64,000 nt of DNA, taken from positions 2,336,001 to 2,400,000 of the forward strand of contig OZ245056.1 in NCBI GenBank assembly GCA_965224705.1, given 5' to 3'. Below are positions 12,888 to 55,955 of this stretch, piece by piece. The notes beneath the pieces are model-generated. The model did not search any database. It was not told the DNA's origin and worked only from the letters and a program-made list of their open reading frames with translations. Source of the DNA: Spirochaetaceae bacterium. GTDB lineage: Bacteria; Spirochaetota; Spirochaetia; DSM-2461. The position numbers were made by a program, and so were the translations under genes. How positions within the stretch are numbered: the stretch's first letter is position 1; each line of letters opens with the position of its first letter.

Positions 12888-12891
12888 CATT

Positions 12892-12964: not shown

Positions 12965-12983
12965 ATGATTGCTCACAGGAAAA

Positions 12984-13070: not shown

Positions 13071-13115
13071 AGAAATCTAATTATCCTGAGGATCCCTGTG
13101 AGCACCTCCAGGTAG

Positions 13116-13200
13116 CGGAGGGGGTGGGATTCGAACCCACGGTAAGTTGCCCTACACCGGTTTTCAAGACCGGCTCCATAAACCGCTCGGTCACCCCTCC
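13116..13200 (-). tRNA. tRNA-Ser(TGA)
   Basis: Anticodon arm CCGGT-CT-TGA-AA-ACCGG, long variable arm, GGTTCGAATCC. Confidence 0.95.
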
Positions 13201-33558: not shown

Positions 33559-35243
33559 CCCCTATTTCTCACCAAGACCTTGAGACAAAGCAGGCTTCCC
33601 ATGCTAAAATATTTACATGAAAAAAAATACAAAACGAAAAGAAGCCCGCTTTGCTAATACAGAGTGTAAAGCCCATCAGCTCGAATTGCAAGGGATGGAA
33701 ATCGGAAAATCCCGCAAAATTATTGTAAAGAATGACGGCAAGGTCAACAGCTCCGATGCCGGATTTCTTCTGCTCCAGCAGGTTGAGCAGAAGCACAGAA
33801 TTATTGAAAAGCTGTCAGATTTCTTCACCGATAAAAGAGATCAGGGAAAAATTACACATAGCCTGAGTGCTCTTCTGAAACAGAGAATCTTCGGAATCTG
33901 TCAGGGCTATGAAGATCTCAATGATCATGAACAATTGCGCGATGATCCGCTGCTTCAGTATATATGCGGACGGGATGATAAAACTCCAGCTGCAGGAAAG
34001 AGCACCCTGAACAGATTGGAACTCGGTCATGAACTGGATGAAAAAACCAAGGACCGGTACAGCAAAATCACCTGGGATGCCGAGGGGATTGAAGAGCTGC
34101 TCTGTCAACTGTTTCTTGAGAGTTTCGAGGAGCCGCCGAAAACCCTGATTCTGGATTTTGATGCCACTGACATTCCCATCCACGGCGAGCAGCAGAGGCG
34201 GTTTTTTCACGGATATTACGATCACTACTGCTACCTTCCGCTCTATGTGTTCTGTGATGATTTTCCCCTGATCGCCCGCCTGCGGTCGTCCAGCGTGGAT
34301 GCCTGTGAGAGTACCGAAGAGATTCTGGTCAAGCTGGTTGGCGCGATCAGGGCCAGATTTCCTGATGTCCGTATCATTTTCCGTGGAGACTCGGACTTCT
34401 GCCGTGAGAGTATACTGAAGCAGTGTGAGATATTAAAAGTCAAATATATCACCGGTATGGCAGGAAATACGCGGCTACTGAAGAAAATTGAACCGCAGAT
34501 GGCTGAGGCTGAAAAGCTCTTCGTTAAGAGCAAAGCAGCCGAACGTGTTTTTACCCGTTTTTCCTGGAGGACCCAAAGCAGCTGGAGTCGCAATCGGGAT
34601 GTCATTGCCAAGGCGGAACATCTGCCGGGCAAGAAGAATCCCCGCTTTATTGTGACTGACATACCTGTTGAAGAAGGGGATGCCCAATCGCTGTATGAAG
34701 ATGTCTACTGTGCACGCGGCGATATGGAGAATCGCATCAAAGAGCAGCAGCTTTATCTGTTTGCCGACCGCACCTCCAGCTATTGGGTGAGTTCGAATCA
34801 GCTCCGATTGTACTTTTCGACAATCGCCTATATATTCTTTGTCCATCTTCGAAAGACAATTCAGCAGGTCAGCGGCGATGAAACCCGGAGCCTGTCCTCT
34901 ACGATCCGATTAAGAATGCTTAAAGTGTCAGCCGCTGTAAAGATTACGGTTCGCCGAGTCTGGATCAGTCTTCCGGAGAGTTTTCCCTGGTGGGACATTT
35001 GGATACGAACATCCCGGGCCATCTGAGCGGTAATAAAAGCAGTTGAGAGTTCTAATCTGGGTTCCTTGGGGAAGCTGTGCCCCGAGGGTTGAAAAAACGG
35101 AAGAAAATCAGAAGAAATCGACTTAATTTGGGCGGAAATAACAAGGATCAATCAACTGGAAACTTTTTGTTCGATATATTAGGGGAGAGAACAGAAATTC
35201 TCCAAGATTTTTTATGCAGTTTTATGTTGGTGAGAAATAGGGG
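33559..35243 (+). mobile_element. IS1380 family insertion sequence, 1685 bp
   Basis: Perfect 17-bp TIRs CCCCTATTTCTCACCAA / TTGGTGAGAAATAGGGG; CTAG duplicated at 33555-33558 and 35244-35247. Confidence 0.93.
33617..35026 (+). CDS. IS1380 family transposase (intact)
   Basis: SSDAG.LLL, QGYEDLNDH..LRDDP, LDFDATD..IHGEQ..FFHGYYDHYCYLPLY, RGDS, NPRFIVT, YCARGDMENRIKEQQL. Confidence 0.95.
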   Translation: MKKNTKRKEARFANTECKAHQLELQGMEIGKSRKIIVKNDGKVNSSDAGFLLLQQVEQKHRIIEKLSDFFTDKRDQGKITHSLSALLKQRIFGICQGYEDLNDHEQLRDDPLLQYICGRDDKTPAAGKSTLNRLELGHELDEKTKDRYSKITWDAEGIEELLCQLFLESFEEPPKTLILDFDATDIPIHGEQQRRFFHGYYDHYCYLPLYVFCDDFPLIARLRSSSVDACESTEEILVKLVGAIRARFPDVRIIFRGDSDFCRESILKQCEILKVKYITGMAGNTRLLKKIEPQMAEAEKLFVKSKAAERVFTRFSWRTQSSWSRNRDVIAKAEHLPGKKNPRFIVTDIPVEEGDAQSLYEDVYCARGDMENRIKEQQLYLFADRTSSYWVSSNQLRLYFSTIAYIFFVHLRKTIQQVSGDETRSLSSTIRLRMLKVSAAVKITVRRVWISLPESFPWWDIWIRTSRAI

Positions 35244-39600: not shown

Positions 39601-42600
39601 TCCTCACTGGCTGAAGCCTTCCGTCAGCTTATTCCTGCCAATCCCCTTGCGTCCATCTACATCAATGGTAGAAGTCTTCTGATGAGAAATGATGAAGACT
39701 ACGGGGCGATCTTTCTGGCTGATCAATTCAGCACTCATGATCAGTCGGTCCAGGGTATTTCTCACTGGAATATCTTTGGCCCTTATTCTGTTTCCGGGCG
39801 GCAGATGGCAGAAAAATCGACCATTGCTGAAATCTATCGAATTATTTCCCGTCATGGTCTGGCCGATAGTTCAGATGGCGCATGGCAGTTCCTGAACCCT
39901 GAAACGGTATGGGAAAACGCTCATTTTCAATCCAGAGAAGAAGTTTCCCACATGCTTGTACACCTTTCCCGCGATCTGGAAGACATGCCGACGGCCCGAC
40001 CTGTAACCGAGCATGTTATGGAAGCTCTGGAAAGGTGGCAGAAAAGCCTGGAGGACTACTTCCTGGTAAAAAGTCATTCATTCTCTGATGATCTGGATGA
40101 AGAGGAGATACAAACCAGACTGGAAGAGCTTGAAGCTGCACGGGAAGTTGTGAAAATGAATACCCAGAGACACTCCCGCATTGAATCGACCAGTGAACCA
40201 TTGATGATGTTGGCCCTCAGTATTCTGATTCATCCCAATGAGAGTTCTGCCAGTGAAACCTTCATCAGAATTTCAGCCAGTGAATTAGCCGGGATGCTGA
40301 CAGATCTGAACTCTGATCTGGATGCAGAATCCACCTGGCTTCCTTTATTGACAGACCTTAAAGAGACCCTGGGAATTCAGCCGGATGATGAGGTGGCAGG
40401 CGTGCTGGACGATCATTTCTTACCAGCACGGATTCTGGCTGCACAATATGTGAGAGAGGCCTCTGGAATTGCCAGGGGAGAGGCTGCTTATGCCGATCAG
40501 ATTCTCTATTCCAGATTGACCGGGTTGTCTCTGGAGTCTTACGCATCCATGATCGGTCAATTTGAATCCGAAAACTCTCCTGGAGAGTTGTTAAACGATT
40601 CGTATGCTTCGAGAGGGAATCTGGATGAACTGCAGAATAATACCGCATGGGAGGACATTCTTGCCCCGGCTCTCTCAGATTTGCCGGGATCGAAACTGTA
40701 TCAGGCCACTCTGGCTGAGATCCTGATAACTCTGACCGATGAGCCCACTGCCCGGTGGTATCTGGCCCAGGAGGGCATCGACATCAACTTTGATTCTACA
40801 GGATACAGCCGCCATTATGCTCTGGATGAGAGAGCTGCACTTTTTTTTCTGAAGAGAGAAGCTCTGTGGGGGACGTTGACCGATGAGAAGAAGGAAGAGT
40901 TCAGCCTTTCCGATGAATCGGCCCGGGAACTGGAGAAGTTTTCCCTCATTGCTGAAGCACTTCATCGATACATACCGGCGGTGGATGGAAATCTCATCGA
41001 ATACCTTGGCGGCATCAATGGCATCAGTGAATCCGAAGCGGGCATCATCCTTTCAGACCGCTGGAACGATCTTTATTTTCAGAAGAGTATTCAGGAGCGT
41101 ACACTTTCTGACGCGGATCAGTTTCTCTGGGTTAATTCCAGCCTTGATTCTTTAAATCAATACCACAAAGCTGCGGCCTTTTCTCAAGTCAGTCATCTGG
41201 CAGAGAAAACTCGAAATACTCTGGCGGCAGAAAGTAAGAGCCTTGACCGGGAAGACTCCAGGCTGAAATATGCCGTGAGAAGAAATGAACTGAGGGAAAA
41301 ATCTCCGGGCATCTGGCGGCTTTACCTGGATGCAAAATACATGCAGCTGAGGGAGAATGAAGAATGGAGCGGATCAATCGGAGAGACAGAAGAATTCAGG
41401 ACAGGTGAGACTGAATTTATTGACCGGGTCCCGCTGTATCAGGGAGAATCTCTTCCCCTGGACAGCAGGAGAACTATTTATCAGGCGAAGGACAGGACTC
41501 AGGCCGCTCTTCTGGAAACCTTCAATCAGCTTGCTCTGACGACTGACAAATTGAATGATGTCCTCAAAACCCGGGACGAAGAAAGTATCAGTGATTCCTC
41601 CATGGAAAGATTCAAACTCTGGGCGGAAGAGCTTTCTTCCAGGATCGGAACTCACTTTGAACCTGAGAAGGATCCCGTTCCGACCGATGTCTTTCAGGTA
41701 AACCAATCTTTGAAAATAGAAGTGGAATCTTCTCGCAGTGAATGGCACAGGCGGGAGTCTGAGATTTCATCCCTCCAGTCAAAAATTCGCTCCTTTGGAC
41801 AGAGCATATCCAATTGGATCGAAAACATAGATCAACAATCCCGGCCTTTTATCACTGGATCTCAGCAGGTAATCAAAGATTTGAACGTAAAAATTGATGC
41901 GGTGGAAGAAAGATGGAAGAATCTCATCGGCCCGAAAGATGATCCCCAGGCGGATACTTACAGGGGAGCCGAATACCGCTACTCAAGGTCATATAATGAA
42001 GTTCAATCCAGTCTGAAATCCCTTGATGCAGCGAAGCAGAACTTCAAAAAGTCAAAGGCCATCCGGGATTACTCATCAAGCTATCATCTGTATCTTGGGC
42101 GGGATATTGCTTCGGAGGAAAGACCGGCAGACAGGGGTGAATCCCTCCAGATGGATGAACTTCAACAGATAATTGATGCTGCCCGTCCTGAGAAGTATCT
42201 GGGTCAGGTTTCCACCCAGTATCATCGGAGCAGGATTGTTGTGGAAACTCTTGAGAATATCCAGCAGAAAACAGCCGATTCTCTTTCTGAACGAGACAGC
42301 CTCTACAGAAAACAATCAGAAGAAGTGAACAGTGCCCGAAGGCTGGAGGTGGCTCTGAAGAGTCTCTCCAATGTTTTAACAGATTATACGGAAAAAACTC
42401 TGGGTGAATATGAGAGAATCTACCAGAAAAGGGAAGCAGTCCTCCGCAAATTCACCCTGGACCTTGGGGATGAGGACGACTTTATCTACAACTTCCGGAC
42501 TGATCCAGGCGGCTCAAAACTTATGGAAGAACAGGTTCTTCTCAACGGCATGGATGTACACTGGGACAGAGATGGCCGTGCACATATAACCTTTGATTTG

Positions 42601-45600
42601 AATGGATTTGATGAACCTGACAGGGAATCCAGTGTCAGTGGAGATCCTTCTGAAATAAAAGAATTAAGGAGGGTACGGAGTTTCTATGGCTACAAATTTG
42701 AGAAAACAAATCATGACTATTACATGGATATGATTGAGCAGGTTGATAGATCGTCGGAGTATATGAGCGAGGAAGAATTAAAGCAGCCCCTGTACCGATT
42801 GAGAGATGATGAAGAACGTCTATCCCGACTCAAACAGTTTTTCGGGATTGAACCTGCTGCTGATGGGATGCAGACGTATGAAGATCTTCTCCACCAACTT
42901 CTTGTTTTTATGAGCCGAAAAGATAGGAGCACCCTTGCCCAATGGCTTAACAGTGTTACCTATGAAACCGCACATTTCTGGAAGCATTTCCCCAGGAAAG
43001 GGAGTTCCGATTACGCCTATTCCATGGCCATGCGTTACAGTGTCTTTGGTAAGAGTCCTGAAGAGGTATACGGTGGGCGGATCAGGGAAGAATCTTCAGG
43101 AGCTTCTTATAATGTCTATATAAACTCATTCCAATCTGACTTTGAAGCCATTGAATCGAAAAGAGATACTCTCTATCAGTTCTTTAAATTCGCCGTGCTC
43201 AGTAACAAACTGAAGAGTTCATCGCCAATTATCAGCTTTCAGAGAATGAATGAGAGCCTGGGACAGATGCTGCTTTACGTGTATACAGAAAGGCGGGTTA
43301 GTAGTTGGTGGGATCGATTCTGGACTCCCCATGCCCACAGCGTAGCTCGAAAAAAGGCGGATGAGAACAGGGATTATTATACGGAACAGGCTCAAACTTT
43401 CCTCAACCTGTCCCGTGAATATGCAGATCTCACTCGAAAAGAGTCCTCGATAAAATCTCAATTGAATATTGTCAATGGAAAGGATGATCTGGGCATGCAG
43501 CAGCTCTTCACCGCACTGGGAGAAGCTGTATGGCATGCTTCTACTCGCCAGAAATTGGAGTTGGCGGACTGGTTACAAATAACAGAAGACCATGAATCCT
43601 TCCCTGATAAATGGACGGCCTCCCAATGGGCTGCAAACCTGGCCATCTGCTTTGCTCCCCTGACGAACACCCTGAACCCCACTGTTCTTGATGCAGCCGG
43701 AAGCTTTGGTCAGTTGATGGATTTACTGGTCGGGATTTCTACAATCCAGCGTGAATCCAGGGAAAATACCCGGAATACCTATCTCTACGGCCTGAATGGA
43801 ATTGCCGAAAACCATGAAAACAATGTTCTCGAGTTCAAAGAAGCCTGGAAGGATTTCCAGAAATCCGGCCTCCTGCCCCTTAAGAACTATAATCTGGATG
43901 ATGCGGAATCCAGATTGAACAGGTGGACTGTCAACGGGGAAAAATCAGATCTTGCGCCTCACATTCAGTACTACCTGAATCAGTATGTCCGGGATGCCGT
44001 CCCGGTTTCTCAAATCCAGATCGATCTTCAGACGGCAATGATGAAATACAGGGATCTCATCGGTGAGAATCCCCTGGAGGCCAATCAAGCCTTCATGGAA
44101 GCGGCCGAATACTTCTCGACGATACTGCAGAATTACCGTATCGGGGAAACCTTCATCGCATCGGCCCGTCAAGCCTGGAGTCAACCGGTGTTCAATAAGC
44201 GGGATATCCTGACAGATTCATGGAATGCGGACAAAACTCTTTATGAGGAACTTCTTTCCGGCAGTAATTCCCAGGGCATCCTGGCGAGCAGATATATTCT
44301 GCCCGGATTGAAGGAAATACTGGGTTCCGTGTTCAATGCCCGAATGGATGGCTGGCAGGAAGTTCGTCTGGCCCGGATGTCTGATATGGTGAAGGAAGGA
44401 CAGCTTCAACACGAGCAATGGAATAAGCAGATGCAGGCCATCCTTGCCCGGGGGAAGATGGAATGGCAGCTTGCCAGAATCCGGCTTGAGGCTGAAAGAG
44501 AAAACTGGAAGGAGGATTTTCAAAACAGTTTTCAGGAGAATCTGGAGGCCTGGAATCTTCAATACCAGCTTTTTCTGGAGAAAAAAACATCCTGGGTGTC
44601 TCAAACAACAAAGCAGGCGGTGAATATTGGCGACAGGGATATCCTTCTCCGATTCGGTGCCGCTGCCCGGGAATCTATTGCGGAAGCGGAAAAATTCGTC
44701 ATGCCTGACTTGCCGGATCCCCCCGATCTCAGTAATTTCATGGGCCGCATACTGGATACCACCCTCCTTGCCGGTCTGCTTGAAAATGCACATGGGTTAA
44801 ATGATGGCATTGATGCCATAGAGCCGGTTGTATTTACTTCTCTGACTGAAAACAGCTACCTCACCGGGGACATTCTGGACAAGATTCGTTTCTACCAGAC
44901 AGAAGAAAACGAAGAACTCAGTGCACGAATGGCATTAATTCAGTATGAACGCATGCTTGACACCCTTCATAAGGCTGTTAAGGGTCTCAGGGAGAGTGTT
45001 CACACAGCGAACGCCGATTTTGCTGACAGCATGAAGAACATGCTCATGGCTGGTGGTTTCAAGCGGGTGGGGAAAAATTTTATAAAGAACACAATGGTAA
45101 CTTCCACTCTGTGGGAAACCAAATACGCCGATCATTACATCGAAGGCAGCAGTGACTACGAACCCAATATAAGAAATCTCAGCAAAGAAATGGTTCCCGT
45201 CAGTGATTCCCTTATCGAAGAGTTTGGTTATGTCGGCATACAGGCTCTTCTTGACAGGGCTGTCCAGGGCCTTGAAGATGAGCAGAAACGCATTTTTGGC
45301 GGCGAGGCCGTTTACATAGCTCAAACAATGACTGAGTACTCAGAGAAATACGACGAGTATGATAACAGCAGTAAAAAATGGATAACACGTACCCGTACCT
45401 GGTATGAGGTTGATCCTGATGAAACCATCAGTGCAGAAGAATACAGAAAGCAGGTTCGAGCATGGGAGAATGCCGATTCCGATCAGCAGTCCCGATCCCG
45501 TTACATCAAGCAGAACGGAGGAGAATTCAACGCCCACATTGGCTATGCTCCTCAATTCAAGCCCCAGCCTGACACAAATTTACGCCTTTCTGACTGGAAG

Positions 45601-48060
45601 CAGAATGTCCGCTTCACGGGATCCGGGGAACAGGGCCGTATCATTGGCCTTTTCTCCCAGCATCAACTGATTGAAGCCGTCGCTATCGCTGAATTCAATA
45701 AACCTTTCTATGAGAAAAAACTCTGGGATGACCGTTTCATCGATTTCAAGTCCTTGAGTCTCCGATCAGTTGTTGATATCAGTACAGCCATTGCCGCTGC
45801 TGTAGTCAGTACCGTTGCGACAGTTGTTGTTCCTGCCGCTGGAATTCCGATGATGATGGCAACAGCCGCCCTGACGGCCGGTATTACACTGACCGATGAT
45901 CTGGTTTTTTCAATAGCTGATATGGCAACCGGTTACCGCACACCTGCACAGGCCATGGAAAGTCTGGTGAAAAAAAACTTATCCACCTTTGCCTCAAGTG
46001 CCATCGGTTCCATCGGGTCCGGAATCTTTGAAGGTGCCGGTGCCCTGGGAAAATCTCTCATCGTAGCCGCCCGGACCGGTACAAATCAGGTGGCAGTTTC
46101 CACGATTAACGCCATAGATTTCACGGCCGCTGATGGTGACTTCTTTGATGAAGATGCTTTTTTGGGAGGATTGAATCCAGGAAGTATCGTCATGGGTATG
46201 GCCGGGAGTTTTGTTCAATTCAGCCTGAATGAAGTCAATCTCGCAGGTTATCTTGGAATGGATTACAAACAGGGTCAGATTCTGCACCGAACCATTGGTA
46301 CAGGTGTCAATGCCTCACTGGAATACGGTTTTCAGGGAGAAACTTCTCTGAATCTTCTGAGCTTTTCGGACTTTTTCATGCCGTTCTCCGGGGATGGAAA
46401 GGCTGCTTCGAATTCCAGGATCTTCAACAGTTTTGCTCATGTTGATGTCGGGCTCTTACAGGTTAATCTGGGACAGGATGGTATAACCGCCAACATTGGA
46501 ATGGGTGGGCATCGGATGAATGCCGGTGCCATAGTCCATGCCATCAACGGACTTGACATTTATAGAGAGAATGCCCGTATTGCCCGTTCCAATATCGATG
46601 ATGATCTAACAGTCGCCATGCGGACCCTATACTCTGCCCGGGCTGAGAATGGAGGAACCCGGGTCATGAGAGATCTCTATGAGGACATTCTTGTCGGGAA
46701 AAGGGCCAGGCTGCGGACAGCAAACCGTCAGACATATGATGGAAAAACCGAACTACTCGGTGGGATACGTGTCATTAATTTGAACAAAGAGGGAAAGAGC
46801 GATTTTGATCTGGCTGTACTTCTTGCTCACGAGGCCTGGCGGGATGGAATTGATTCGGGAGAACTGGCCAATAAGATCGAAACCTCGAATGCGGCCTTTG
46901 GGCACATGAGTGTTGCGGCACAGATTGCTTCCACCTATGGATACGACTCTCTGAATGAACATAATGCTGATGAAGCCCGTGCCTTCAATGAAGCCGGTAT
47001 CAGTGGTGACTGGAATGAAGTTGGTGGAATGGTTGAACGATATGATTGGAGTGGAGAGTATTGGAAGTTAATCAGGAAAGAAGATGCATCGTATAAAATT
47101 GTATGGGATGGGGAAAAGAATCTGTATGATGAGAATGGAAATCTTCTTTCCATTGATACAACGGATTCCTATGCCCTGAGTCTTTCAAAATACCTGGGGT
47201 TAGCCAGAACAAATGACTGGCGCAGGGCGGCAGTTCTATTGACGGATAAGGGTGTCAATATAAACAAAGAACGAAATGGATACGTACAGAGCCGTGAGCA
47301 TCGGCAGGAAAATGGTCGGTTGGGTCTGGATGAAATACTCTCTTTCAATGTGGGAAGCAAGAGGCAGGGAGAAATCGATTCCTACCTGTCATCCCGTAAG
47401 CAATACATAAATAAATACAATATGTGGGATATGGTCAATCTTGATGGCAGGTTGTCGAAAATTGGAGGAAAACATGTCCGGAACAGAGCTGAAAGAGCTC
47501 GGATTGACTTCTATCAGGATGTCGCTTCGAATCCTGAGAATCTATGGAAAATGAGAGGAAATTCCCTGACCAATCCTGTGCAGACAGTTGAAGATGGTCA
47601 GGAGACCTATATTACTGTTGCAGACAGGTATAATTATACGGATGAAGCCGGTGTTCATTACAACGGAATCCATAGGGTTTTATTCAGCGAAAACAAAGCT
47701 GTGGATATTGGGAGTCAGGGAATATCCAGCCCGGTATTCACAATCGGCCCTACCACCTTCATGCGTCCGCGATGGCAAAACGTTGACAAAAAAGACTCCG
47801 GATATGGATATTTTGCATCAGGTTTGAGTCGTAACTTCGGATTTATATCAGGTCACTTGAATGATAATAACAGTATTCAGAAGGATTTAGATCATTTATT
47901 TGATAATGCGGACCAGGCGGGATTTAATGTTGTTCAACTACCTGATTACACTTCCTATGGGATGACCGGAACTACCGGGAACTCCACAGCCATACATCTT
48001 CATTATGAGGTAGGCCATTATGACACTATGTATGAGCGTTTGCGGAAGTGGCTGCCTTAG
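36670..48060 (+). CDS. Giant (3796 aa) putatively secreted protein: coiled-coil body, hydrophobic segment, HEAWRDG motif, C-terminal M23-peptidase-like domain
   Basis: 11.4-kb uninterrupted ORF; signal-peptide-like N-terminus; C-terminal AVDIG...SGHL...GTTGNSTAIHLHYEV. Confidence 0.85.
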   Translation: MKNRFFHWLPTSGVWSYRFASLLFTCVIISWSVFPQTIPLLPSTNHALLEVYIDQAASTRTRNDWLRIARGGFESVLAEWEAAAALVITDSRVLQSGRKKVLKDLEQSLSTGLSEWAVTQFRNQHDPRGFSDFWVQMREAALTATFESRSGEFIKDEKGRLVVIKADRETLAEDSAAFKNFWDELIDQKVDDWYSGAQTAFSELLLDFGSEEAAILETYRQSTLSSLKQSYSRELSKMTRLTESAMIHYRLKNIVDSDSDAGGQDVIPSETRAMLNQVQNDAEAGLTRLKDGLNVNQDAPEVKKADIDAARWRASFREELEKGILLWREAEERLLMNRIEWEKKAGYDLVLTRKRWDKAFRELAEANEKWLDDYQRIWNEGQDRWEIQSRQMQNTLENARSEMASNINGRHDSMVQRVSTLVDILGQSLIMMSTARENFAYWMNKAAPYSQQTLEQVSWDIEDLRARYNRAVNLKKYSHGLRWSFLFFNDKAGEQARYWLEDIYNVYLERAQDVRADLYQTYNLSVFGESGLDEMGLKDLTSELKNGQWEQIFLDDYQVELLKARAAASYWEKELEIAAAVTRYAEKPSSILGSEEEKNEVDRAWTESFDAYQKALETYQAGIKKLEMANLDLKENSRKLTEVQKILTGYREELAEARAVYQNEILLKELDSSRYFKEQIRDSYVRLLELYGLTDDEKKSTESFYMDYLNKNRAYEGEFSLSQTSLLVTELIEGDPGRIPPILSLQDLGVRYENARDWNTANLFSASRLNPDFMEKFQKAWNLSIDEEVYLKATKLVKGLSAQYDADGTLDTEAMVIFQADIAAITAGLLRNYRTELESVVNQIVLLTSEHIFEDTGWAGSSVDLSRAESEEDVKSALKDEAQRAKFTLIADRITFDKEVLFKLKQNLDNWMAGGLKETDFRPIQPNDINDQQSVLAWIYYSSLHENASFSVRLKKDLEFLAELEEVAGEEETIKNFSSLAEAFRQLIPANPLASIYINGRSLLMRNDEDYGAIFLADQFSTHDQSVQGISHWNIFGPYSVSGRQMAEKSTIAEIYRIISRHGLADSSDGAWQFLNPETVWENAHFQSREEVSHMLVHLSRDLEDMPTARPVTEHVMEALERWQKSLEDYFLVKSHSFSDDLDEEEIQTRLEELEAAREVVKMNTQRHSRIESTSEPLMMLALSILIHPNESSASETFIRISASELAGMLTDLNSDLDAESTWLPLLTDLKETLGIQPDDEVAGVLDDHFLPARILAAQYVREASGIARGEAAYADQILYSRLTGLSLESYASMIGQFESENSPGELLNDSYASRGNLDELQNNTAWEDILAPALSDLPGSKLYQATLAEILITLTDEPTARWYLAQEGIDINFDSTGYSRHYALDERAALFFLKREALWGTLTDEKKEEFSLSDESARELEKFSLIAEALHRYIPAVDGNLIEYLGGINGISESEAGIILSDRWNDLYFQKSIQERTLSDADQFLWVNSSLDSLNQYHKAAAFSQVSHLAEKTRNTLAAESKSLDREDSRLKYAVRRNELREKSPGIWRLYLDAKYMQLRENEEWSGSIGETEEFRTGETEFIDRVPLYQGESLPLDSRRTIYQAKDRTQAALLETFNQLALTTDKLNDVLKTRDEESISDSSMERFKLWAEELSSRIGTHFEPEKDPVPTDVFQVNQSLKIEVESSRSEWHRRESEISSLQSKIRSFGQSISNWIENIDQQSRPFITGSQQVIKDLNVKIDAVEERWKNLIGPKDDPQADTYRGAEYRYSRSYNEVQSSLKSLDAAKQNFKKSKAIRDYSSSYHLYLGRDIASEERPADRGESLQMDELQQIIDAARPEKYLGQVSTQYHRSRIVVETLENIQQKTADSLSERDSLYRKQSEEVNSARRLEVALKSLSNVLTDYTEKTLGEYERIYQKREAVLRKFTLDLGDEDDFIYNFRTDPGGSKLMEEQVLLNGMDVHWDRDGRAHITFDLNGFDEPDRESSVSGDPSEIKELRRVRSFYGYKFEKTNHDYYMDMIEQVDRSSEYMSEEELKQPLYRLRDDEERLSRLKQFFGIEPAADGMQTYEDLLHQLLVFMSRKDRSTLAQWLNSVTYETAHFWKHFPRKGSSDYAYSMAMRYSVFGKSPEEVYGGRIREESSGASYNVYINSFQSDFEAIESKRDTLYQFFKFAVLSNKLKSSSPIISFQRMNESLGQMLLYVYTERRVSSWWDRFWTPHAHSVARKKADENRDYYTEQAQTFLNLSREYADLTRKESSIKSQLNIVNGKDDLGMQQLFTALGEAVWHASTRQKLELADWLQITEDHESFPDKWTASQWAANLAICFAPLTNTLNPTVLDAAGSFGQLMDLLVGISTIQRESRENTRNTYLYGLNGIAENHENNVLEFKEAWKDFQKSGLLPLKNYNLDDAESRLNRWTVNGEKSDLAPHIQYYLNQYVRDAVPVSQIQIDLQTAMMKYRDLIGENPLEANQAFMEAAEYFSTILQNYRIGETFIASARQAWSQPVFNKRDILTDSWNADKTLYEELLSGSNSQGILASRYILPGLKEILGSVFNARMDGWQEVRLARMSDMVKEGQLQHEQWNKQMQAILARGKMEWQLARIRLEAERENWKEDFQNSFQENLEAWNLQYQLFLEKKTSWVSQTTKQAVNIGDRDILLRFGAAARESIAEAEKFVMPDLPDPPDLSNFMGRILDTTLLAGLLENAHGLNDGIDAIEPVVFTSLTENSYLTGDILDKIRFYQTEENEELSARMALIQYERMLDTLHKAVKGLRESVHTANADFADSMKNMLMAGGFKRVGKNFIKNTMVTSTLWETKYADHYIEGSSDYEPNIRNLSKEMVPVSDSLIEEFGYVGIQALLDRAVQGLEDEQKRIFGGEAVYIAQTMTEYSEKYDEYDNSSKKWITRTRTWYEVDPDETISAEEYRKQVRAWENADSDQQSRSRYIKQNGGEFNAHIGYAPQFKPQPDTNLRLSDWKQNVRFTGSGEQGRIIGLFSQHQLIEAVAIAEFNKPFYEKKLWDDRFIDFKSLSLRSVVDISTAIAAAVVSTVATVVVPAAGIPMMMATAALTAGITLTDDLVFSIADMATGYRTPAQAMESLVKKNLSTFASSAIGSIGSGIFEGAGALGKSLIVAARTGTNQVAVSTINAIDFTAADGDFFDEDAFLGGLNPGSIVMGMAGSFVQFSLNEVNLAGYLGMDYKQGQILHRTIGTGVNASLEYGFQGETSLNLLSFSDFFMPFSGDGKAASNSRIFNSFAHVDVGLLQVNLGQDGITANIGMGGHRMNAGAIVHAINGLDIYRENARIARSNIDDDLTVAMRTLYSARAENGGTRVMRDLYEDILVGKRARLRTANRQTYDGKTELLGGIRVINLNKEGKSDFDLAVLLAHEAWRDGIDSGELANKIETSNAAFGHMSVAAQIASTYGYDSLNEHNADEARAFNEAGISGDWNEVGGMVERYDWSGEYWKLIRKEDASYKIVWDGEKNLYDENGNLLSIDTTDSYALSLSKYLGLARTNDWRRAAVLLTDKGVNINKERNGYVQSREHRQENGRLGLDEILSFNVGSKRQGEIDSYLSSRKQYINKYNMWDMVNLDGRLSKIGGKHVRNRAERARIDFYQDVASNPENLWKMRGNSLTNPVQTVEDGQETYITVADRYNYTDEAGVHYNGIHRVLFSENKAVDIGSQGISSPVFTIGPTTFMRPRWQNVDKKDSGYGYFASGLSRNFGFISGHLNDNNSIQKDLDHLFDNADQAGFNVVQLPDYTSYGMTGTTGNSTAIHLHYEVGHYDTMYERLRKWLP

Positions 48061-48318
48061 AGCCTGTCGGACTTACGTCTCACGGCTCAATTTTTGCCCT
48101 TCTCTCCAGAAGCAAGCCTCCTGCTTGCTTCTGGAGAGCCGCCTTCGTTTTCTCGCTATCGCTCGGCACTCTCTCAGGATGCGAGTCCATAGACTCGCAT
48201 ACCCTGCTGCTGCGTTGCCAAAATACTCACGCAGCCCAGCTACGCTTAAGTTTTTGTCGCCTTGCATCAGGAAGAAATCATCAAAAATCGCCTCAAAGCC
48301 TTAAAGTCCGACAGACTC
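48060..48318. mobile_element. MITE family C, 259-bp copy (inverted relative to the 35542 copy)
   Basis: Ends GAGCCTGTCGGACTT...AAGTCCGACAGACTC; interior matches the reverse complement of 35542-35703 plus about 97 extra bp; flanks CTTA/CTCA. Confidence 0.88.
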
Positions 48319-48410
48319 CTCAGGAGATGCGGGTCGAATCTGCTGTTCGAGTTATGGGCAATTCGGGGGGTTCCCCCCAGGGCCTGGGATTGGTACACTA
48401 ATCATCCTAG

Positions 48411-48463
48411 GAGCCTGTCGAACTTCCGCCTTGCGGCGCAAAGTCTTAAAGTCCGACAGACTC
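48411..48463. mobile_element. MITE family C, 53-bp mini copy
   Basis: GAGCCTGTCGAACTT...AAGTCCGACAGACTC; flanks CTAG/CTGG. Confidence 0.8.
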
Positions 48464-48477
48464 CTGGAAGTGATATT

Positions 48478-49359
48478 ATGGATCAAATTACACAACTTGA
48501 AAGTCTTGGTATTCATATACTTCGGGAAGCATATGCTAATTTCACCAATCTCTGTATGCTGTGGTCAATTGGAAAAGACTCGACAGTACTCCTGTGGTTA
48601 GCCCGCAAGGCCTTCCATGGTCATGTTCCTTTTCCCCTGGTTCACATTGATACGCATTACAAGATTCCTGAGATGATTGAATACAGGGACAGGCTTACCC
48701 GTGAGTGGCATCTGCCAATGGTTTACGGCGAGAACAGGGCCGCTCTTGAAGCCCGGCAAACCTTTCCCGATGGCAATGTCGACCGTATCACCTGCTGTCG
48801 TCTGCTCAAGTCAGAAGCTCTCAGGAATACTCTGAACGGCACATGGCCGCGGTATCGATACAATCATCAGGATGGTGAGTACCAGGTGGACAGGGATACG
48901 GAGGCCTACACCGGAGTCATTGTGGGGGTAAGATCGGATGAGGAGGGATCCCGGTCCAAAGAAAGATACTTCTCTCCCCGGGATACGGAGAATATCTGGG
49001 AGGTGGAAGATCAACCTCCAGAGTTCTGGAACCAGTTCAAAACAGATTTTGCTCCGAATACTCATATCCGTATTCATCCCCTGCTGGATTGGACTGAAAC
49101 GAATATCTGGGAATACATAGAACGTGAATCCATTGCAACTGTTTCCCTCTACTACGATCAGGGAGATGGCCGACGGTACAGATCCCTGGGGTGTGGACCC
49201 TGTACCCATGCGGTGAAATCCGGCGCAAAAAACGTTCAGGACATCATCACTGAATTGAAGTCAGGTCAATTCTCAAATATTGCCGAGCGTTCAGGACGGG
49301 CCCAGGACAAAGAAGATGGCGGGGGACTGGAAACACTTCGCCGTGAAGGTTACATGTAG
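48478..49359 (+). CDS. cysD: Sulfate adenylyltransferase subunit 2
   Basis: [68 protein letters not shown]...LRREGYM; start moved to ATG 48478 because the upstream in-frame sequence is MITE. Confidence 0.95.
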
Positions 49360-51155
49360 TGACCGAACAGATGAATGTGGTTATCACTGGCCATGTTGAC
49401 CACGGAAAGAGTACTGTAATCGGTCGTTTGATGGCGGATACAGGCAGTTTACCGGATGGAAAACTCGAGCAGGTACAGGCTTCATGCCGCCGGAACTCAA
49501 AACCCTTTGAATATGCGTTCCTCCTGGATGCCCTCAAAGATGAACAGAGCCAGGGCATAACCATTGATTCGGCCCGGGTCTTCTTCAACACCAAGAAGCG
49601 TCACTACATCATAATTGACGCCCCCGGTCATATTGAATTCCTCAAAAACATGGTGACAGGAGCATCCAGGGCGGAAGCTGCCTTTCTCTGCATTGATGCT
49701 CATGAAGGAGTGCAGGAAAACTCCAAACGGCATGGGTACCTCCTATCCATGCTTGGAATCAAGCAGATATGTGTTCTGGTGAACAAGATGGATCTTGTAA
49801 ACTACGATTCCAGAACCTTCAAATCCGTTGTTCGGAAGTTTTCCCGGTTCCTACGGAATATCAATATGAGAAATGTTCCGTTTATACCGGTTTCCGGCAT
49901 GAACGGAGATAATATTACAACCATCAGCCAGGCAATGCCATGGTGGGATGGCCATACAGTTCTTTCCCTCATTGATTCATTTCAGAAGGAAGAGATTCCA
50001 TTGAACATGCCCTTCCGCATGCCGGTTCAGGGAGTGTATAAGTTTACGGCACTGGAAGATAACCGTCGCATTGTTGCCGGAACAGTTTCTTCGGGAACTC
50101 TTAAAAAAGGTGATGAGATTGTCTTTTATCCATCGGGGAAGAGAAGTCATATAGCCAGTATAGAGGATTTTCCGGACAAAAAGATTGAAGCAGTTGGAGC
50201 AGGTGAGGCAACGGGTTTCACCCTGACCGAACAGATTTACATCAAGCGCGGAGATCTTGCCGCAAAGTCAGATGAAAAACCTCCACTGTCCGGGAACTTG
50301 ATCAGGGTTAATCTTTTCTGGCTTGGTAAAAAACCTCTGGTCCGGGACAGGGAGTACTTCCTGAAAATAGGTACTGAGCGGGTCCGAATGCAGCTGGTGG
50401 ATACTATGAAAGTGATTGATGCTTCCAATCTTAATACTGATGGAATGAAGAAGATGGTTGAGCGTCATGATGTGGCGGACTGTGTTCTCACGACCCAACG
50501 TCCCATTGCTTTCGATCTGGTTGAAGATTTTCCCCAGACCAGTCGCTTTGTTATTGTCGATGGGTATGAAATTGCCGGAGGCGGCATTATTAATCAGTCT
50601 CTCCGGGGAAGAATTGCCCAGTACAGAGACCAGGTTATGAACCGGAACCTTAAATGGGATGTGGGTAATATTACCAGAGTGAGCCGAAGCGAGAAGTATG
50701 GACATCAATCAGCCCTGATTCTTGTTGGAGGACCTGAGGACAGACGCAAAGCAAATTTTGCACGAACTGTTGAAGAAAGGCTTTTCAACCTTGAAACCAA
50801 GGTGTACTACCTGGGAGTTCAGAATGTTCTGGCTGGCCTGGAATCTGATCTGGTTGTAAAAAGAGATGCCATTTACCCGAAGGACAGGGATGAAATGATA
50901 CGCCGCCTTGCTGAGTTGAGCAATATCCTTGTGGATGCCGGTATTGTTCTTGTGGCAACAGTATCTGAATTGAGTCAGGAAGAACAGGAGATTTTTACAA
51001 CTTCTGTTTCTCCAGTATCCGTTTTTACTATCTGGGTTGGCTCAGCAGAAGGTTCCGCTGTGAATGCGGACTACATAATTGAGAAGACGGAGACAGCTCC
51101 CGATCATCTGGATCCTGTGATGAAACTGCTTAAAGAGAAAGGAATTGGAATATGA
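49359..51155 (+). CDS. cysN: Sulfate adenylyltransferase subunit 1 with degenerate C-terminal APS-kinase-like domain
   Basis: [32 protein letters not shown]-terminal domain CysC-like (YYL...GLESDL...RRLAELS.ILVDAG) but without a P-loop. Confidence 0.92.
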
Positions 51156-52444
51156 GATTCTCACCAACTTCTTACCAACTGGTTTCAGTTAAATCGGGGA
51201 AAGTCTATTCCGATACCAATGAATGGACTTTGAGCCTTCCTGAAGAATCTCCATCCCTGATTCGGGCAGTGTACAGAGAGAAAAAGCTCAGTATCAGGAG
51301 TGATCTGGAAGGATTATACTGTTTTGCCGACTGGCTTCCTGTCAAACGAACGCTGAGGGGGGCATCGGTACCGATCACGTTCAGAAGTACAGCCCTGGCC
51401 GTTGAACTTGGCCTGAACAATCTCTGGATAACTTTCAGTGGGTGGTGGCCGGAGAAGGGCATCACCATGATCACCGGTACTTTTAAGGAATGCGAAGCAT
51501 ACACCGTATGTGCCCGTATGGGTGAACACTTTCCCCATGTTCTCGTGGTTGCTTCGGCCGGAAACACGGCAAGAGCTTTTGCCCATGTGTGTTCAGACAA
51601 TAACATTCCCCTGCTTCTTTTTGTTCCACAGGATAACACAGGTGATGTCTGGCTGGACAAACCCCTGGCTGATTGTGTGAAGCTTGTCTGTCCTGCGGCC
51701 GGTGGGGATTACTACGATGCGATTCGCATGAGTGAGGCTGCGGTTGCAGGTTCAAGCCTGTTTATTGCAGAGGGGGGGGCAAAGAACATCGCTCGCCGGG
51801 ATGGCATGGGAACCACAGTATTATCTGCCGCGGTAATCATTGGCCGTATCCCGGATGTCTACTTCCAGGCAGTGGGAAGTGGAACCGGGGCCATTGCCGC
51901 GTGGGAGGCAGCCATGCGGCTGGCTGCTGATGGCCGATTCGGAAAGAATTCCATGCGGCTTATGGTGAGTCAGAATGAGCCTTTTACACCTATGGCGGAT
52001 TCCTGGAATGCTGACAGCCGGGATTTTATTGTAAAAGATGATGAATCGGCGAGAAAGCTTGCAGGACAGGTGAATGCAAAGGTTCTCACCAATCGACGAC
52101 CTCCCTGGGCAATCCCCGGCGGTTTGTATGATGCCCTGAAATCCACGGGGGGATCTATTCTTACCGCATCCAATGAGGAAGCCTTCAGGGCAGGTGAAAG
52201 ATTCGCAGAACTGGAAGGTTGTGATATCACTCCGGCAGCTTCAGTGGCCGTGGCTTCCTTATTCGATTCAGTAAAAACGGGCAAAGTCGGAAAGGATGAA
52301 GTGGTGATGCTCAATGTAACAGGTGGTGGAGTCCGCGGAATAAAAGAACATGGAGAACTGCATCACATCATCCCGGAGGAAATACTCCCATTGGATTCTT
52401 CTGATGAGAGTATTGTTGAAATCTGTGAGAAGCTCTTCAACTGA
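51152..52444 (+). CDS. Cysteate synthase (CapA-like, threonine-synthase fold)
   Basis: SLIRAVY, FADWLPV, FSGWWPE...TGTFKECEA (PLP Lys), [64 protein letters not shown]. Confidence 0.9.
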
Positions 52445-52534
52445 ATTCAATATTTCATGTATAGTGCACAGGAAGGATATCGCTGAATGCAAACTGCAGG
52501 CGAACCCTACCAGCTGATGAGTATTGGAGATTAA

Positions 52535-53824
52535 ATGATTGATATTTTTGCAAAATGTGCGACCAGTGAAGGATACTTCGGAGAACTCAGGACTGCCGGA
52601 GACCGATTTTACACATTACCGGTTATCGATGACATTCCCGGCCCCCTGATGAAGATTCAGGGTCGTGAAAGCATTATGTGGTCGGTCAATAACTACATCG
52701 GCCTTGCCAATGACGCAGAAATCAAAGCTGCTGCGATTGAGGCGGCGGAGAAGTGGTCTGTCAGTTCACCGATGGGCTCCCGTATGATGAGTGGTACGAC
52801 AGGTGAGCATCTGGATCTGGAGAAGTCATTGGCTGAATATGCCCGAAAAGAAGACGCTTTCCTGTTTAATTACGGTTACATGGGTGTCGTGGGAACTGTT
52901 ACCTCCCTCTGTGGACCTGATGATATTCTCATCGTGGACAGGCTTGCGCATGCCTGTATAATTGATGCGGCGTTCAGTGCGAAGGGCGGTCAGGGAGGTA
53001 AACCCATGGTCCGGTTTTTTCGTCACAATGATATGAATGATCTGGAATCGGTACTTGGCAGTGTCAACAAAAACCGTAAGGGCGGGGTGATGATATTGAT
53101 CGAAGGTGTCTACGGAATGACTGGAGACCTGGCTGATCTTCGGAATATTACAATGCTGGCAGAAAAGTACAGTGCCCGTATATTCATTGATGATGCCCAT
53201 GGCATTGGAGTTATGGGTAATCAGGGTCGAGGTACGGCTGATTTCTTTGGTGTCCAGGAGAAAATTGACATTTATTTTGGCACATTTGCGAAAACATTTG
53301 CTTCTATCGGGGGGTATGCGGCTACAAGCACTCAGGTTCGGGACTGGATTGCCTTCAATGCTCGAACTCAGGTCTTTGCCAAAGCCCTTCCCATGGTCTA
53401 TGTTAAATCCCTTCAAGTTGCCCTCAAGAAGGTTATCAATGGAAATGACAGACGTGCTGTCATGTGGGAACGTTCCAACCGATTAAAGAATGGTCTTCGA
53501 GAACTGGGCTGTCATATCGGTTCTGGTGAATCCCCCATATGTGCTGTTTACATTCCTGCCGGGGAAAGTCTGGAAGAACTGATCAAAAAAGTTCTCACCT
53601 ATCTGAGAAGAAATGGAGTTTTCTGCACAGGAGTTATCTGGCCCGTCATTCCCCCGGGGATTGTGATGCTTCGAATGATTCCAACTGCCGCTCATACAGA
53701 AGAACACGTGGCTGAAACAGTTGAAGTATTTAGACGAATGCGGGAAGACTTGCATGTGAAGTTTTCTCTGGCTGAAGAGGAAATTGCCAAAGTTGATAAA
53801 ATATACAGGAAGGGAGCTTTATAA
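52535..53824 (+). CDS. PLP-dependent alpha-oxoamine synthase, probably cysteate C-fatty-acyltransferase (CapB/SulA-like)
   Basis: WSVNNYIGLA, PMGSRMMSG, NYGYMG, HACIID, RHND, EGVYGMTGD, DDAHG, GTFAK253, QVFAK283ALP; follows cysteate synthase. Confidence 0.8.
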   Translation: MIDIFAKCATSEGYFGELRTAGDRFYTLPVIDDIPGPLMKIQGRESIMWSVNNYIGLANDAEIKAAAIEAAEKWSVSSPMGSRMMSGTTGEHLDLEKSLAEYARKEDAFLFNYGYMGVVGTVTSLCGPDDILIVDRLAHACIIDAAFSAKGGQGGKPMVRFFRHNDMNDLESVLGSVNKNRKGGVMILIEGVYGMTGDLADLRNITMLAEKYSARIFIDDAHGIGVMGNQGRGTADFFGVQEKIDIYFGTFAKTFASIGGYAATSTQVRDWIAFNARTQVFAKALPMVYVKSLQVALKKVINGNDRRAVMWERSNRLKNGLRELGCHIGSGESPICAVYIPAGESLEELIKKVLTYLRRNGVFCTGVIWPVIPPGIVMLRMIPTAAHTEEHVAETVEVFRRMREDLHVKFSLAEEEIAKVDKIYRKGAL

Positions 53825-53862
53825 AAAGGCCCAGGCTCCCAGGAATCTACAGGGAGAGAGTT

Positions 53863-53946
53863 TACCGGCGGCCGGACTTGAACCGGCACGGCACATGTGC
53901 CAGCAGATTTTAAGTCTGCTGTGTCTACCTATTCCACCACGCCGGC
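53863..53946 (-). tRNA. tRNA-Leu(TAA)
   Basis: Reverse complement GCCGGCGTGGTGGAATAGGTAGACAC-AGCAGA-CT-TAA-AA-TCTGCT...GGTTCAAGTCCGGCCGCCGGTA. Confidence 0.95.
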
Positions 53947-54026
53947 TGCATATGTCATCTTAATCGTGCCCATGGGTTGGGTCAACGGTGAATCATATGT
54001 TAGAATAATCTGGAAGGAGAATAATA

Positions 54027-55109
54027 ATGAGTATCAAAATTCTCGACAATATCAAACCGGGTGTTGTCTACGGAAATGATTTAAAAAGACTGTTTGAAAT
54101 TTGTAAGAGTCAGGGGTTTGCTCTTCCGGCAGTGAATTGTGTCAATACTGAATCAGTTAATGGTGCACTTGAAGCAGCTGCCAGAGTTAATTCACCTGTT
54201 ATTATCCAGTTCTCCAATGGGGGATCAACGTTTTTTGCCGGGAAGGGTCTTAAACCCGCCAGGGGCCGGGCCGATGTCATTGGAGGTATTGCTGCTGCCA
54301 ATCACATCCATCATGTTGCGGAGGCCTATGGTATTCCCGTTGTTCTTCACACAGATCATTGTGCGAAGAAGCTGCTGCCATGGCTGGATGGACTGCTGGA
54401 TGCCGGTGAAGAGTTTTACAAGGAAAAGGGTCGGCCGCTTTACAGCTCTCACATGCTTGATCTCTCGGAAGAACCCATTGAAGAGAATGTGAGGATTTCC
54501 GGTGAGTATCTCAGGCGTTTAAGTTCTCTGGATATGTATCTTGAAATGGAACTGGGTATCACTGGCGGTGAAGAAGATGGTGTTGATAACTCGGATAGAG
54601 ATCCAGCCGATCTGTACTCAAAACCTGAGGAAATTGATTATGCCTATACCGAACTGAATAAAATCAGTCCCAATTTCACCATAGCGGCGGCATTCGGTAA
54701 TGTGCATGGGGTGTACAAACCAGGAAATGTCAAACTGACACCGGCCATTCTTGATCAAGGGCAGAAGTATATAGTCCGTAAACACAATCTGACCAATCCT
54801 CATCCAGTCACCTATGTATTTCATGGCGGTTCAGGTTCTTCCCAGGATGAAATCCGCAGAAGTATTGAATACGGTGTGGTGAAAATGAACATTGATACCG
54901 ATACTCAATGGGCGACATGGACAGGAGTGCTGAATTTCTATAAGGAAAACGAAGCTTTTCTGCAGAGCCAGTTGGGGAATCCCAATGGTGCCGATGCACC
55001 GAATAAGAAATACTATGATCCAAGAGTCTGGCTCAGAAAAGGCCAGGAAACGCTGGTGGCTCGTATCATTGAAGCATTCGAAAGCCTCAACGCTGCAGGG
55101 CGTAATTAG
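54027..55109 (+). CDS. fbaA: Class II fructose-bisphosphate aldolase
   Basis: FALPAVN, HTDHCAKKLLPW, SSHMLDLSEE, ELGITGGEEDGVDN, FGNVHGVYKPG, FHGGSGS, KMNIDTD, NKKYYDPR. Confidence 0.97.
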   Translation: MSIKILDNIKPGVVYGNDLKRLFEICKSQGFALPAVNCVNTESVNGALEAAARVNSPVIIQFSNGGSTFFAGKGLKPARGRADVIGGIAAANHIHHVAEAYGIPVVLHTDHCAKKLLPWLDGLLDAGEEFYKEKGRPLYSSHMLDLSEEPIEENVRISGEYLRRLSSLDMYLEMELGITGGEEDGVDNSDRDPADLYSKPEEIDYAYTELNKISPNFTIAAAFGNVHGVYKPGNVKLTPAILDQGQKYIVRKHNLTNPHPVTYVFHGGSGSSQDEIRRSIEYGVVKMNIDTDTQWATWTGVLNFYKENEAFLQSQLGNPNGADAPNKKYYDPRVWLRKGQETLVARIIEAFESLNAAGRN

Positions 55110-55127
55110 AGTCATTGCTCATTAGAA

Positions 55128-55955
55128 TTGATTCCCCATTTCATGGACAGATCGAAAAACTGTTACCTTCCCTGTAGAATTATCGATTCCCATTTTCATG
55201 CTCTACACATGAGAAAAAGAGGAATGAATCTTACGGAAATTTTTCGCACTGCATTTTCCAATGGCCTGACAGGGGCCATAGATGTTGCAGTCAATGAGAA
55301 CGATTTTGATGAGCGCCTTGGATTCTCCAATGAATTTGAACTGATCAAGCTTTCGGCCGGTATTCATCCCCTATCATCGGCCAGCGATGGAAAAACAACA
55401 TGGCATGAACGTTTCGAAGTGATCCGGGAACAGGCCAGGCACCCCGATGTTGTGGCAGTTGGGGAAAGCGGACTTGATTTCTACAGGGATCATGTACCGG
55501 TCAGGGTGCAGAAAATGGCATTCAGGGAGCACCTGGATCTGGCTTCAGAACTCAACAAGCCAATAATCATTCATAACCGGGAAGCTGACAGGGATATTTT
55601 GGAACTGGTCAGAGGATCTTCCTGCCGCAGGGGTGTATTTCATTGTTTCTCATCCAACAGGGAAACGGCTGAGCAGGCCCTGGAACTGGGATATTACATA
55701 TCCCTGGCGGGAAACCTCACATACAGGAAGATGGGGATACTTCATGAGGCTGTCAGGATCATTCCCAGGGACAGAATACTTATCGAAACAGATTCGCCTT
55801 ATCTGGCTCCGCAGCATGTAAGAAGGCAGAATAATCATCCTGGATTCATTGGGTATACACTGGAATATCTTGCAGAATTAAGAGGAGAAGACCCCGGGGA
55901 ACTGGCACAGAGCATCAGAGACAATACTCAAAGATTATTCTCAATAGAACCTTAG
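55128..55955 (+). CDS. tatD: TatD family hydrolase (start may be ATG 55143)
   Basis: DSHFH, GIHP, VGESGLDF, IIHNREA, FHCFS, ETDSPYLAP. Confidence 0.93.
   Translation: MIPHFMDRSKNCYLPCRIIDSHFHALHMRKRGMNLTEIFRTAFSNGLTGAIDVAVNENDFDERLGFSNEFELIKLSAGIHPLSSASDGKTTWHERFEVIREQARHPDVVAVGESGLDFYRDHVPVRVQKMAFREHLDLASELNKPIIIHNREADRDILELVRGSSCRRGVFHCFSSNRETAEQALELGYYISLAGNLTYRKMGILHEAVRIIPRDRILIETDSPYLAPQHVRRQNNHPGFIGYTLEYLAELRGEDPGELAQSIRDNTQRLFSIEP

Follow-up and report, generated by a model that had tools for sequence, protein, structure and literature searches.

A predicted cysteate C-fatty-acyltransferase encoded behind sulfate activation and cysteate synthase genes in a Spirochaetaceae bacterium

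The gene run and its surroundings

The window analyzed here, the whole stretch of 64,000 nucleotides, contains a run of cysD, cysN, a cysteate synthase gene and, in last place, the gene of an alpha-oxoamine synthase (AOS) of the cysteate C-fatty-acyltransferase (CFAT) type (Table 1). The spacing is operon-like: cysD and cysN overlap by 1 nt, cysN and the cysteate synthase gene by 4 nt, and the latter is followed, after a gap of 90 nt, by the CFAT gene on the same strand. The named relatives of the cysteate synthase, at 57-59% identity, include Maribellus, Draconibacterium and Prolixibacteraceae among others. The kinase-like domain of CysN scores only 40.5 bits with TIGR00455 (cut-off 138.7) and its P-loop is not intact. 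The likely cysD start gives a protein of 293 aa that matches its relatives, and a longer open reading frame from 48262 is false, produced by a dispersed repeat just upstream of the gene (48059-48470). This MITE- or REP-like repeat has genomic matches at 168 places after merging, of which 24 span 150 nt or more, and shows very high depth in read sets.

Table 1. Positions of the pathway genes and active-site codons. Plain numbers are window positions; those prefixed G000:C1 refer to the host genome.
Feature	Position	Strand	Evidence
Sulfate adenylyltransferase small subunit, CysD	48478..49359	+	NF003587, 327.7 bits against cut-off 195
Sulfate adenylyltransferase large subunit, CysN, with degenerate C-terminal APS-kinase-like domain	49359..51155	+	TIGR02034, 337.1 bits against cut-off 336.1
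Cysteate synthase, archaeal (TIGR03844) type	51152..52444	+	458.8 bits against cut-off 324.9
Predicted CFAT (CFAT/SulA/CapB-type AOS), 429 aa	52535..53824	+	PDB ranking, NCBIfam cut-offs, model
K253 codon, PLP Schiff-base lysine (SulA K251, CoCFAT K250)	53291..53293	+	Alignment
K283 codon, trans-subunit active-site wall lysine (SulA K281, CoCFAT K280)	53381..53383	+	Alignment; role from papers
APS reductase	G000:C1:1663217-1664254	-	Over cut-off
Candidate SDR (possible 3-ketocapnine reductase, CapC/KCR)	G000:C1:388537-389343	-	Orthologues at CFAT loci
Double-VOC protein, uncharacterised	G000:C1:1159417-1160538	-	Genome search

One read run covers positions 48291-55200 without differences. Two RNA-library runs yielded short contigs identical to parts of the CFAT gene at depth 2-5, contigs being unable to show transcription. 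Scans for promoters (7 sites, 7.5 expected) and for terminator-like sites (11, with 6.4 expected, sd 2.8) returned nothing usable in either case.

Directly upstream of the repeat and cysD lies the gene of a 3796-aa protein without a Pfam match (36670-48060, +), and a tRNA-Leu(TAA) gene (53863-53946, -) immediately follows the CFAT gene on the opposite strand. Elsewhere the window contains FlaA genes, a cluster of three tRNA-Ser genes and one tRNA-Arg gene (12801-13200, -) and a gene for a 2182-aa protein with a lipoprotein-like N-terminus, about 18 near-identical repeats of about 96 aa and three C-terminal repeats (5559-12107, -). Also, a fused PyrB-PyrI-like aspartate carbamoyltransferase (20439-22025, -) and a transposase-like ORF (33617-35026, +) were recognized by eye.

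Further genes of sulfate and cysteate metabolism are found outside the window in the host genome (3.0 Mb, 95% complete), which encodes SerC over cut-off and an APS reductase with an additional N-terminal domain of about 100 aa that harbors a CxxC motif and is possibly a fused thioredoxin-like module. In two other loci (L091 and L095) an APS reductase gene lies directly 3' of the CFAT gene. No NIR_SIR domain of sulfite reductase was detected in the 95% complete host genome by a search that was positive in 11 of 14 controls, and only 5 of 30 CFAT-positive spirochaete genomes contain one. As no sulfite reductase was found, sulfate activation appears to serve cysteate formation.

Family assignment and the second lysine

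The best PDB matches of the CFAT protein are CoCFAT (28EH, E 4.7e-96) and SulA (7U7H, E 9.5e-95), the serine palmitoyltransferase (SPT) 3A2B being far behind (E 3.9e-62; HMMER). The predicted structure (pLDDT 93.8) has the fold-type I AOS scaffold with its PLP lysine. Structure comparison was discarded as a means of separating the AOS subfamilies, with SPT, KBL and SulA falling within about 2 Z units and 28EH not among the rows compared.

The NCBIfam models for SPT, BioF, KBL and ALAS all score below cut-off (277.5 of 640, 275.4 of 426, 271.1 of 460 and 207.6 of 339 bits, respectively). These scores bear on the possibility that the protein is a housekeeping KBL or BioF and that cysteate is made for coenzyme M or for catabolism, as the JGI label 'glycine C-acetyltransferase' of many homologues and the occurrence of TIGR03844 over cut-off in Methanosarcina, among the controls, might suggest. 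Against it, in addition to the unreached KBL and BioF cut-offs, stand a KBL-like gene that adjoins a threonine-dehydrogenase-like gene elsewhere in the genome and the lack of any ComE over cut-off in the host genome, making such a role hardly credible. The genome carries other AOS paralogues besides this separate KBL-like gene, and two ACP-like ORFs.

One of the paralogues, with Cys at the position of K283, is found at G000:C1:612129-627388 among ORFs that by eye resemble KS, AT, HMG-CoA synthase, two enoyl-CoA hydratases, SDRs, FabZ and MMPL proteins, and may belong to a beta-branching lipid or polyketide pathway.

The first-pass annotation had read a PLP lysine and a second lysine 30 residues apart in the protein, together with three motifs reminiscent of the CapB subfamily. 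The translation confirms K253 (GTFAK, 249-253) and K283 (QVFAKALP, 279-286), as well as PMGSRMMSG (79-87), NYGYMG (112-117) and HACIID (139-144), and the PDB ranking bears out the SulA/CapB/CFAT assignment. The proposed alignment with SulA also holds: K253 and K283 fall on K251 and K281 of SulA and on K250 and K280 of CoCFAT, equivalences read by eye from the HMMER alignments, and the S. multivorum SPT 3A2B has FSAS in the K283 stretch. The papers on CoCFAT and SulA single out 19 positions, 16 of which are identical in the spirochaete protein (N52, G81, G114, Y115, H139, C141, E190, D219, H222, F248, T250, A252, K253, F281, K283 and R380), among them the entire sulfonate-contact and first-shell set of CoCFAT (N52, G114, Y115, H139, C141, E187, H219, F245, T247, A249 and F278 in CoCFAT numbering).

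The three differing positions are A82S, F113Y and M277V relative to CoCFAT. The second and third substitutions (here Y113 and V280) are also found in 15 and 8 of 32 Bacteroidota CFAT-like loci, respectively. At pocket position 82, where CFATs are described as having a small Ala (G81-A82), the spirochaete protein has Ser, as do 114 of 120 homologues, and Ala occupies the position in 31 of the 32 Bacteroidota loci, so that S82 is a nearly clade-specific variant. The accessible text of PMC13692747 gives Ala82 as a difference from SPT and does not demonstrate a requirement for it. Overall identity between spirochaete CFAT and Bacteroidota CFAT-like proteins is about 35-42%. Taken as a sequence-based assignment, membership in the CFAT family is well supported, in a phylum for which the papers searched report no such pathway.

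Position 283 is Lys in all 120 close homologues, and with lysine making up 5.6% of the protein this conservation is not due to chance. The same residue occurs in all 54 rows of core spirochaetes, where some genomes are counted twice, in 14 of the 15 rows belonging to other families of spirochaetes (one row being truncated) and in all 32 Bacteroidota CFAT-like loci, compared with none of 8 other AOS loci. Its occurrence in more distant proteins was assessed by taking the top 150 from 17,358 representatives (50% identity): 147 have a residue at this position, Lys in 15 cases, and the 143 that keep the PLP lysine have Ala (62), Thr (40) or Lys (14) among others. Three proteins with K283 (P0132, named Planctomycetaceae, P0136 and P0147) are devoid of Y115, C141 and E190 and fall outside the CFAT clade, and two proteins with His at this position branch nearer to the CFAT group than they do. 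The view of the second lysine as a signature of cysteate specificity therefore stands as regards a strong marker and falls as regards an exclusive one; K283 should be read together with G114-Y115, E190 and A252. The lysine itself is published knowledge.

Three distant representatives (P0125, whose cluster includes a member named Rhodothermaceae, P0126 and P0127; 1049-1127 aa) are fusions of FAAL/AMP-binding, ACP and CFAT-type domains that keep K283 and Y115. Since they carry the same lysine, dedicated assembly lines also make use of the CFAT domain, and these proteins could be self-contained assembly lines for sulfonate lipids.

As to the function of the second lysine, the first-pass annotation proposed, subject to confirmation, that Lys281 of SulA binds the cysteate sulfonate. 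This is not what the published experiments report. The SulA K281A variant binds cysteate normally, according to the part of PMC9304779 available, and in the 2026 cysteate-bound structure of CoCFAT the hydrogen bonds to the sulfonate come, as given in the accessible text of PMC13692747, from Asn52, His139 and Lys250. The same text describes K280' of the partner subunit as lining the pocket, with its backbone amide bound to the PLP phosphate, and K280A as retaining less than 10% activity. Given the structure and the SulA data, the proposed role is unsupported. A neutralization of the sulfonate by the K283 side chain, acting as a specificity switch, would agree with the invariance of the residue in CFAT-like proteins, with the loss of activity in K280A and with the location of K280 within 4 Å of the adduct (PMC13692747, in part). 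It is nevertheless improbable in view of the normal binding by K281A, the three listed contacts, the presence of Lys at this position in non-CFAT enzymes and the SPT-like first-shell swaps in CoCFAT, from which serine activity was never obtained in the portion of PMC13692747 consulted. By analogy with its published counterparts, K283 would shape the active site rather than grip the sulfonate.

Distribution, phylogeny and partner genes

In order to follow the association of CFAT with cysteate synthase, 41 genomes of near relatives were compared, a CFAT-level match being defined by E below 1e-140. CFAT and cysteate synthase over cut-off were each found in 20 of them, and both in 18; one more genome has the synthase and CFAT fragments, two incomplete genomes have one gene each, and G034 (95% complete) carries CFAT alone without a TIGR03844 match. 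Across 301 Spirochaetota genomes CFAT occurs in 20 and cysteate synthase in 21, with 20 in common. Of the 26 spirochaete loci whose upstream sequence extends to 1.5 kb or more, 21 have the synthase gene upstream of CFAT. In loci of families f32 and f45 (L081-L089 and L094) CFAT is flanked by genes for a PanE-like reductase, a membrane protein and NfeD-like proteins, the sulfate genes are not beside it and cysteate synthase is encoded elsewhere; co-occurrence of the unlinked genes holds in family f32 as well. Family, residues, gene order and co-occurrence are direct observations here, and the cysteate synthase operon is the strongest evidence for the role of the gene, beyond the lysine. Fisher tests on co-occurrence are descriptive only, as kin are not independent. 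Named relatives, at 69-96% identity, are Spirochaeta sp. UBA2779 and symbionts of Olavius and Stewartia; together with the FlaA genes of the window, they identify the host as a spirochaete.

In a tree of 41 rows (LG+G4; SulA and CoCFAT not among them) the spirochaete CFATs group with the Bacteroidota CFAT-like loci at 100/98, as a sub-branch of their own and apart from the SPTs. Support is 100/100 for a branch of the Bacteroidota rows and 91/93 for a separate one that unites the spirochaete rows with one FAAL-ACP-CFAT fusion; monophyly of the spirochaete CFATs reaches only 57/50. The closeness of the cysteate synthase to that of Prolixibacteraceae raised the possibility of a recent acquisition from Bacteroidales; for CFAT, the corresponding clade of spirochaetes, P0125 and the Prolixibacteraceae locus was rejected (p-AU 5.6e-41). 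Given this rejection and the low monophyly support no donor or direction is claimed, and the spirochaete sequences fit an apparently old lineage without a direction of transfer. Archaeal-type cysteate synthase was found in 1 of 151 Bacteroidota genomes, itself without a CFAT match at E 1e-70, and its pairing with CFAT is thus not general in that phylum.

These data bear on whether the spirochaete clade could have switched substrate, to serine or a different small amino acid, and make sphingoid bases. The SPT-like S82, the long branch separating spirochaete from Bacteroidota CFATs and a fold search in which SPT and KBL rank as high as SulA point in that direction, yet the co-occurrence with cysteate synthase is near-perfect even where the genes are unlinked, all the other CFAT residues are retained and the SPT model score is far below cut-off, so that a shift of this kind is highly improbable.

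Also recurrent is a double-VOC protein of about 355 aa, whose gene lies close to CFAT in 19 of the 31 spirochaete loci, downstream on the opposite strand. In locus L090 the VOC gene directly follows CFAT on the same strand, and the Bacteroidota locus L143 has an overlapping SDR-CFAT-VOC run. The protein occurs in 17 of 20 CFAT-positive and none of 281 CFAT-negative Spirochaetota genomes, nine of the 17 having a divergent form only (31-35% identical), and in 28 of 54 CFAT-positive and none of 97 CFAT-negative Bacteroidota genomes, kin again not being independent. As half of the CFAT-positive Bacteroidota are without it, it is not needed for all sulfonolipids. Residues Q9, E71, E233 and E309 are invariant, and H258 in the main subgroup. 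The model (pLDDT 95) has as best structural matches four-module VOC proteins at 13-15% identity, including hydroquinone dioxygenase (Z 25.6, rmsd 2.8, 277 aligned), maize glyoxalase I (Z 22.6, rmsd 3.0, 260 aligned) and uncharacterised Bacillus proteins; they give the fold and not the function. Searches of PDB, NCBIfam and Atlas returned generic glyoxalase labels only, and no VOC-sulfonolipid link was found among the literature search results. The protein is a candidate new enzyme of the pathway.

Six of 31 loci (L022, L023, L027, L028, L048 and L049), at the level of the same genus, carry an orthologue of the candidate reductase SDR immediately 5' of the cluster. In Bacteroidota it tracks CFAT and VOC (34 of 54 CFAT-positive and 3 of 97 CFAT-negative genomes). 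As a universal reductase of Spirochaetota it was rejected, being present in none of the 19 other CFAT genomes yet in 45 of 53 genomes of a CFAT-negative family. No N-acyltransferase was identified among the genes analyzed.

Predicted product and comparison with known systems

Judged by its characterised homologues, the most likely product of the gene is the enzyme that opens sulfonolipid synthesis by linking the sulfur amino acid cysteate with a fatty acid; all six CFATs assayed in the accessible part of PMC13692747 gave a cysteate product. We consider it probable, as a whole, that a cysteate-using CFAT is fed here by the upstream sulfate and cysteate genes. CysDN would convert sulfate to APS and the APS reductase encoded elsewhere would yield sulfite, which the cysteate synthase would combine with O-phosphoserine to give cysteate, the substrate of CFAT; the synthase reaction rests on the family name TIGR03844 and on the available text of a review (PMC10191378). 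The reaction, acyl donor and residue roles of CFAT would follow those of its homologues: a homodimeric PLP enzyme presumably carries out the decarboxylative condensation of L-cysteate and a long-chain acyl thioester, the latter probably acyl-ACP, to form a 3-ketocapnine-type sulfonated base. K253 would carry PLP and, once freed, assist in sulfonate binding with N52 and H139, and K283 of the partner subunit would shut the active site.

The lipid evidence concerns Oceanispirochaeta. A CFAT with K251/K281, 60% identical, is recorded under 'unclassified Oceanispirochaeta', a node comprising strains M1 and M2 and one further species, and a VOC protein lies three accession numbers away; from these accession names, M1 and M2 probably carry the gene. 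For both strains, the part of PMC11129491 available reports intact polar lipids consisting of glycolipids, cardiolipins, PC, PG and an unknown phospho-sugar lipid, with capnines given for Lutibacter; section 26 and Tables S45-S46 name no capnine or sulfonolipid for M1 and M2, under one growth condition (pyruvate). The 'unknown phospho-sugar' ions were considered as sulfonolipids and rejected, no one-sulfur CHNOS formula fitting within 2 mmu. Abundant constitutive capnines should not be assumed in spirochaetes. The strains are held in culture collections (PMC11129491, as far as available).

Cysteate could be the substrate and the product a minor, conditional, short-chain or further modified sulfonate instead of a bulk membrane sulfonolipid, which seems possible if somewhat doubtful; equally tentative examples are remodelling by the VOC protein or attachment to a larger, poorly extractable envelope polymer. 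The absence of capnines from the M1/M2 table, the unknown ions without a one-sulfur formula, the tracking of CFAT by the VOC protein and the existence of FAAL-ACP-CFAT fusions would agree with it. On the other side, the table covers a single growth condition and CFAT carriage is deduced from accession names, and many lineages keep the whole sulfate-to-cysteate route, as for a regular cell component. Such a product would leave the enzyme chemistry of the preferred reading, a cysteate-using CFAT, intact and differ in the end product only.

Epimerase and isomerase activities are known kinds of VOC chemistry. A bolder and rather unlikely scenario is that of an old second sulfonolipid lineage in Spirochaetota, in which the VOC metalloprotein would catalyze an additional, so far overlooked step as an epimerase or isomerase on the 3-keto intermediate, yielding either a C2-epimer or a diol base that lacks the amine, like IOR-1. 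The available texts report two product epimers in reductase assays (PMC11211663) and describe IOR-1 of Algoriphagus as a capnine with two hydroxyls (10.1101/052399). If true, this step would explain why classical capnines were unseen in Oceanispirochaeta.

The main point of interest is the host, a spirochaete and not a member of Bacteroidota. Sulfonolipid synthesis appears limited to Bacteroidota in the consulted part of the 2023 review (PMC10191378), and of the 9633 genomes prioritised in a human-gut survey, 9632 were assigned to this phylum. The string 'Spiroch' is absent from the main texts of PMC11525784 and PMC11211663 and from the text supplement of PMC13692747, and no spirochaete sulfonolipid was found in the literature searches or in the accessible portions of PMC11052126, PMC12236494 and PMC12927429, although other distribution surveys may exist. 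Several families of spirochaetes possess the complete sulfate-to-ketocapnine gene set, as does the genus to which the Olavius and Stewartia symbiont records belong, and this weakens capnines as a Bacteroidota biomarker. As sulfonolipids act on choanoflagellates and mammals (PMC9304779, in part), a signalling role in marine symbioses is also raised. The chemistry is already known, and the novel elements are the VOC partner, the variant with Ser82 and the discrepancy with the lipid table of Oceanispirochaeta.

Among the known systems, SulA of Alistipes finegoldii (7U7H; PMC9304779) is matched over its full length, with K251/K281, N53, H140 and R376 all conserved, and has the highest identity (40%) of the structural matches listed (Z 49.5, rmsd 2.0, 384 aligned). 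Alistipes shares with the spirochaete an archaeal-type cysteate synthase (PMC10191378, available text). The predicted spirochaete enzyme differs from SulA in its spirochaete host, in Ser instead of Ala at position 82 and in its clustering with cysDN and cysteate synthase genes. Compared with CoCFAT/CapB of Capnocytophaga ochracea (28EH, 28FA; PMC13692747), the protein retains the sulfonate contacts N52, H139 and K250 as well as the trans K280, with the three substitutions given above, whereas Capnocytophaga uses CapA, which the same part of PMC10191378 places as only distant kin of the archaeal-type synthase found in the spirochaete. The S. multivorum SPT (3A2B) has the same fold (Z 51.7, rmsd 2.0, 391 aligned), the same PLP chemistry and S82 in common, but has Ala in place of K283, Asp in place of E190 and Ser in place of C141 and A252.
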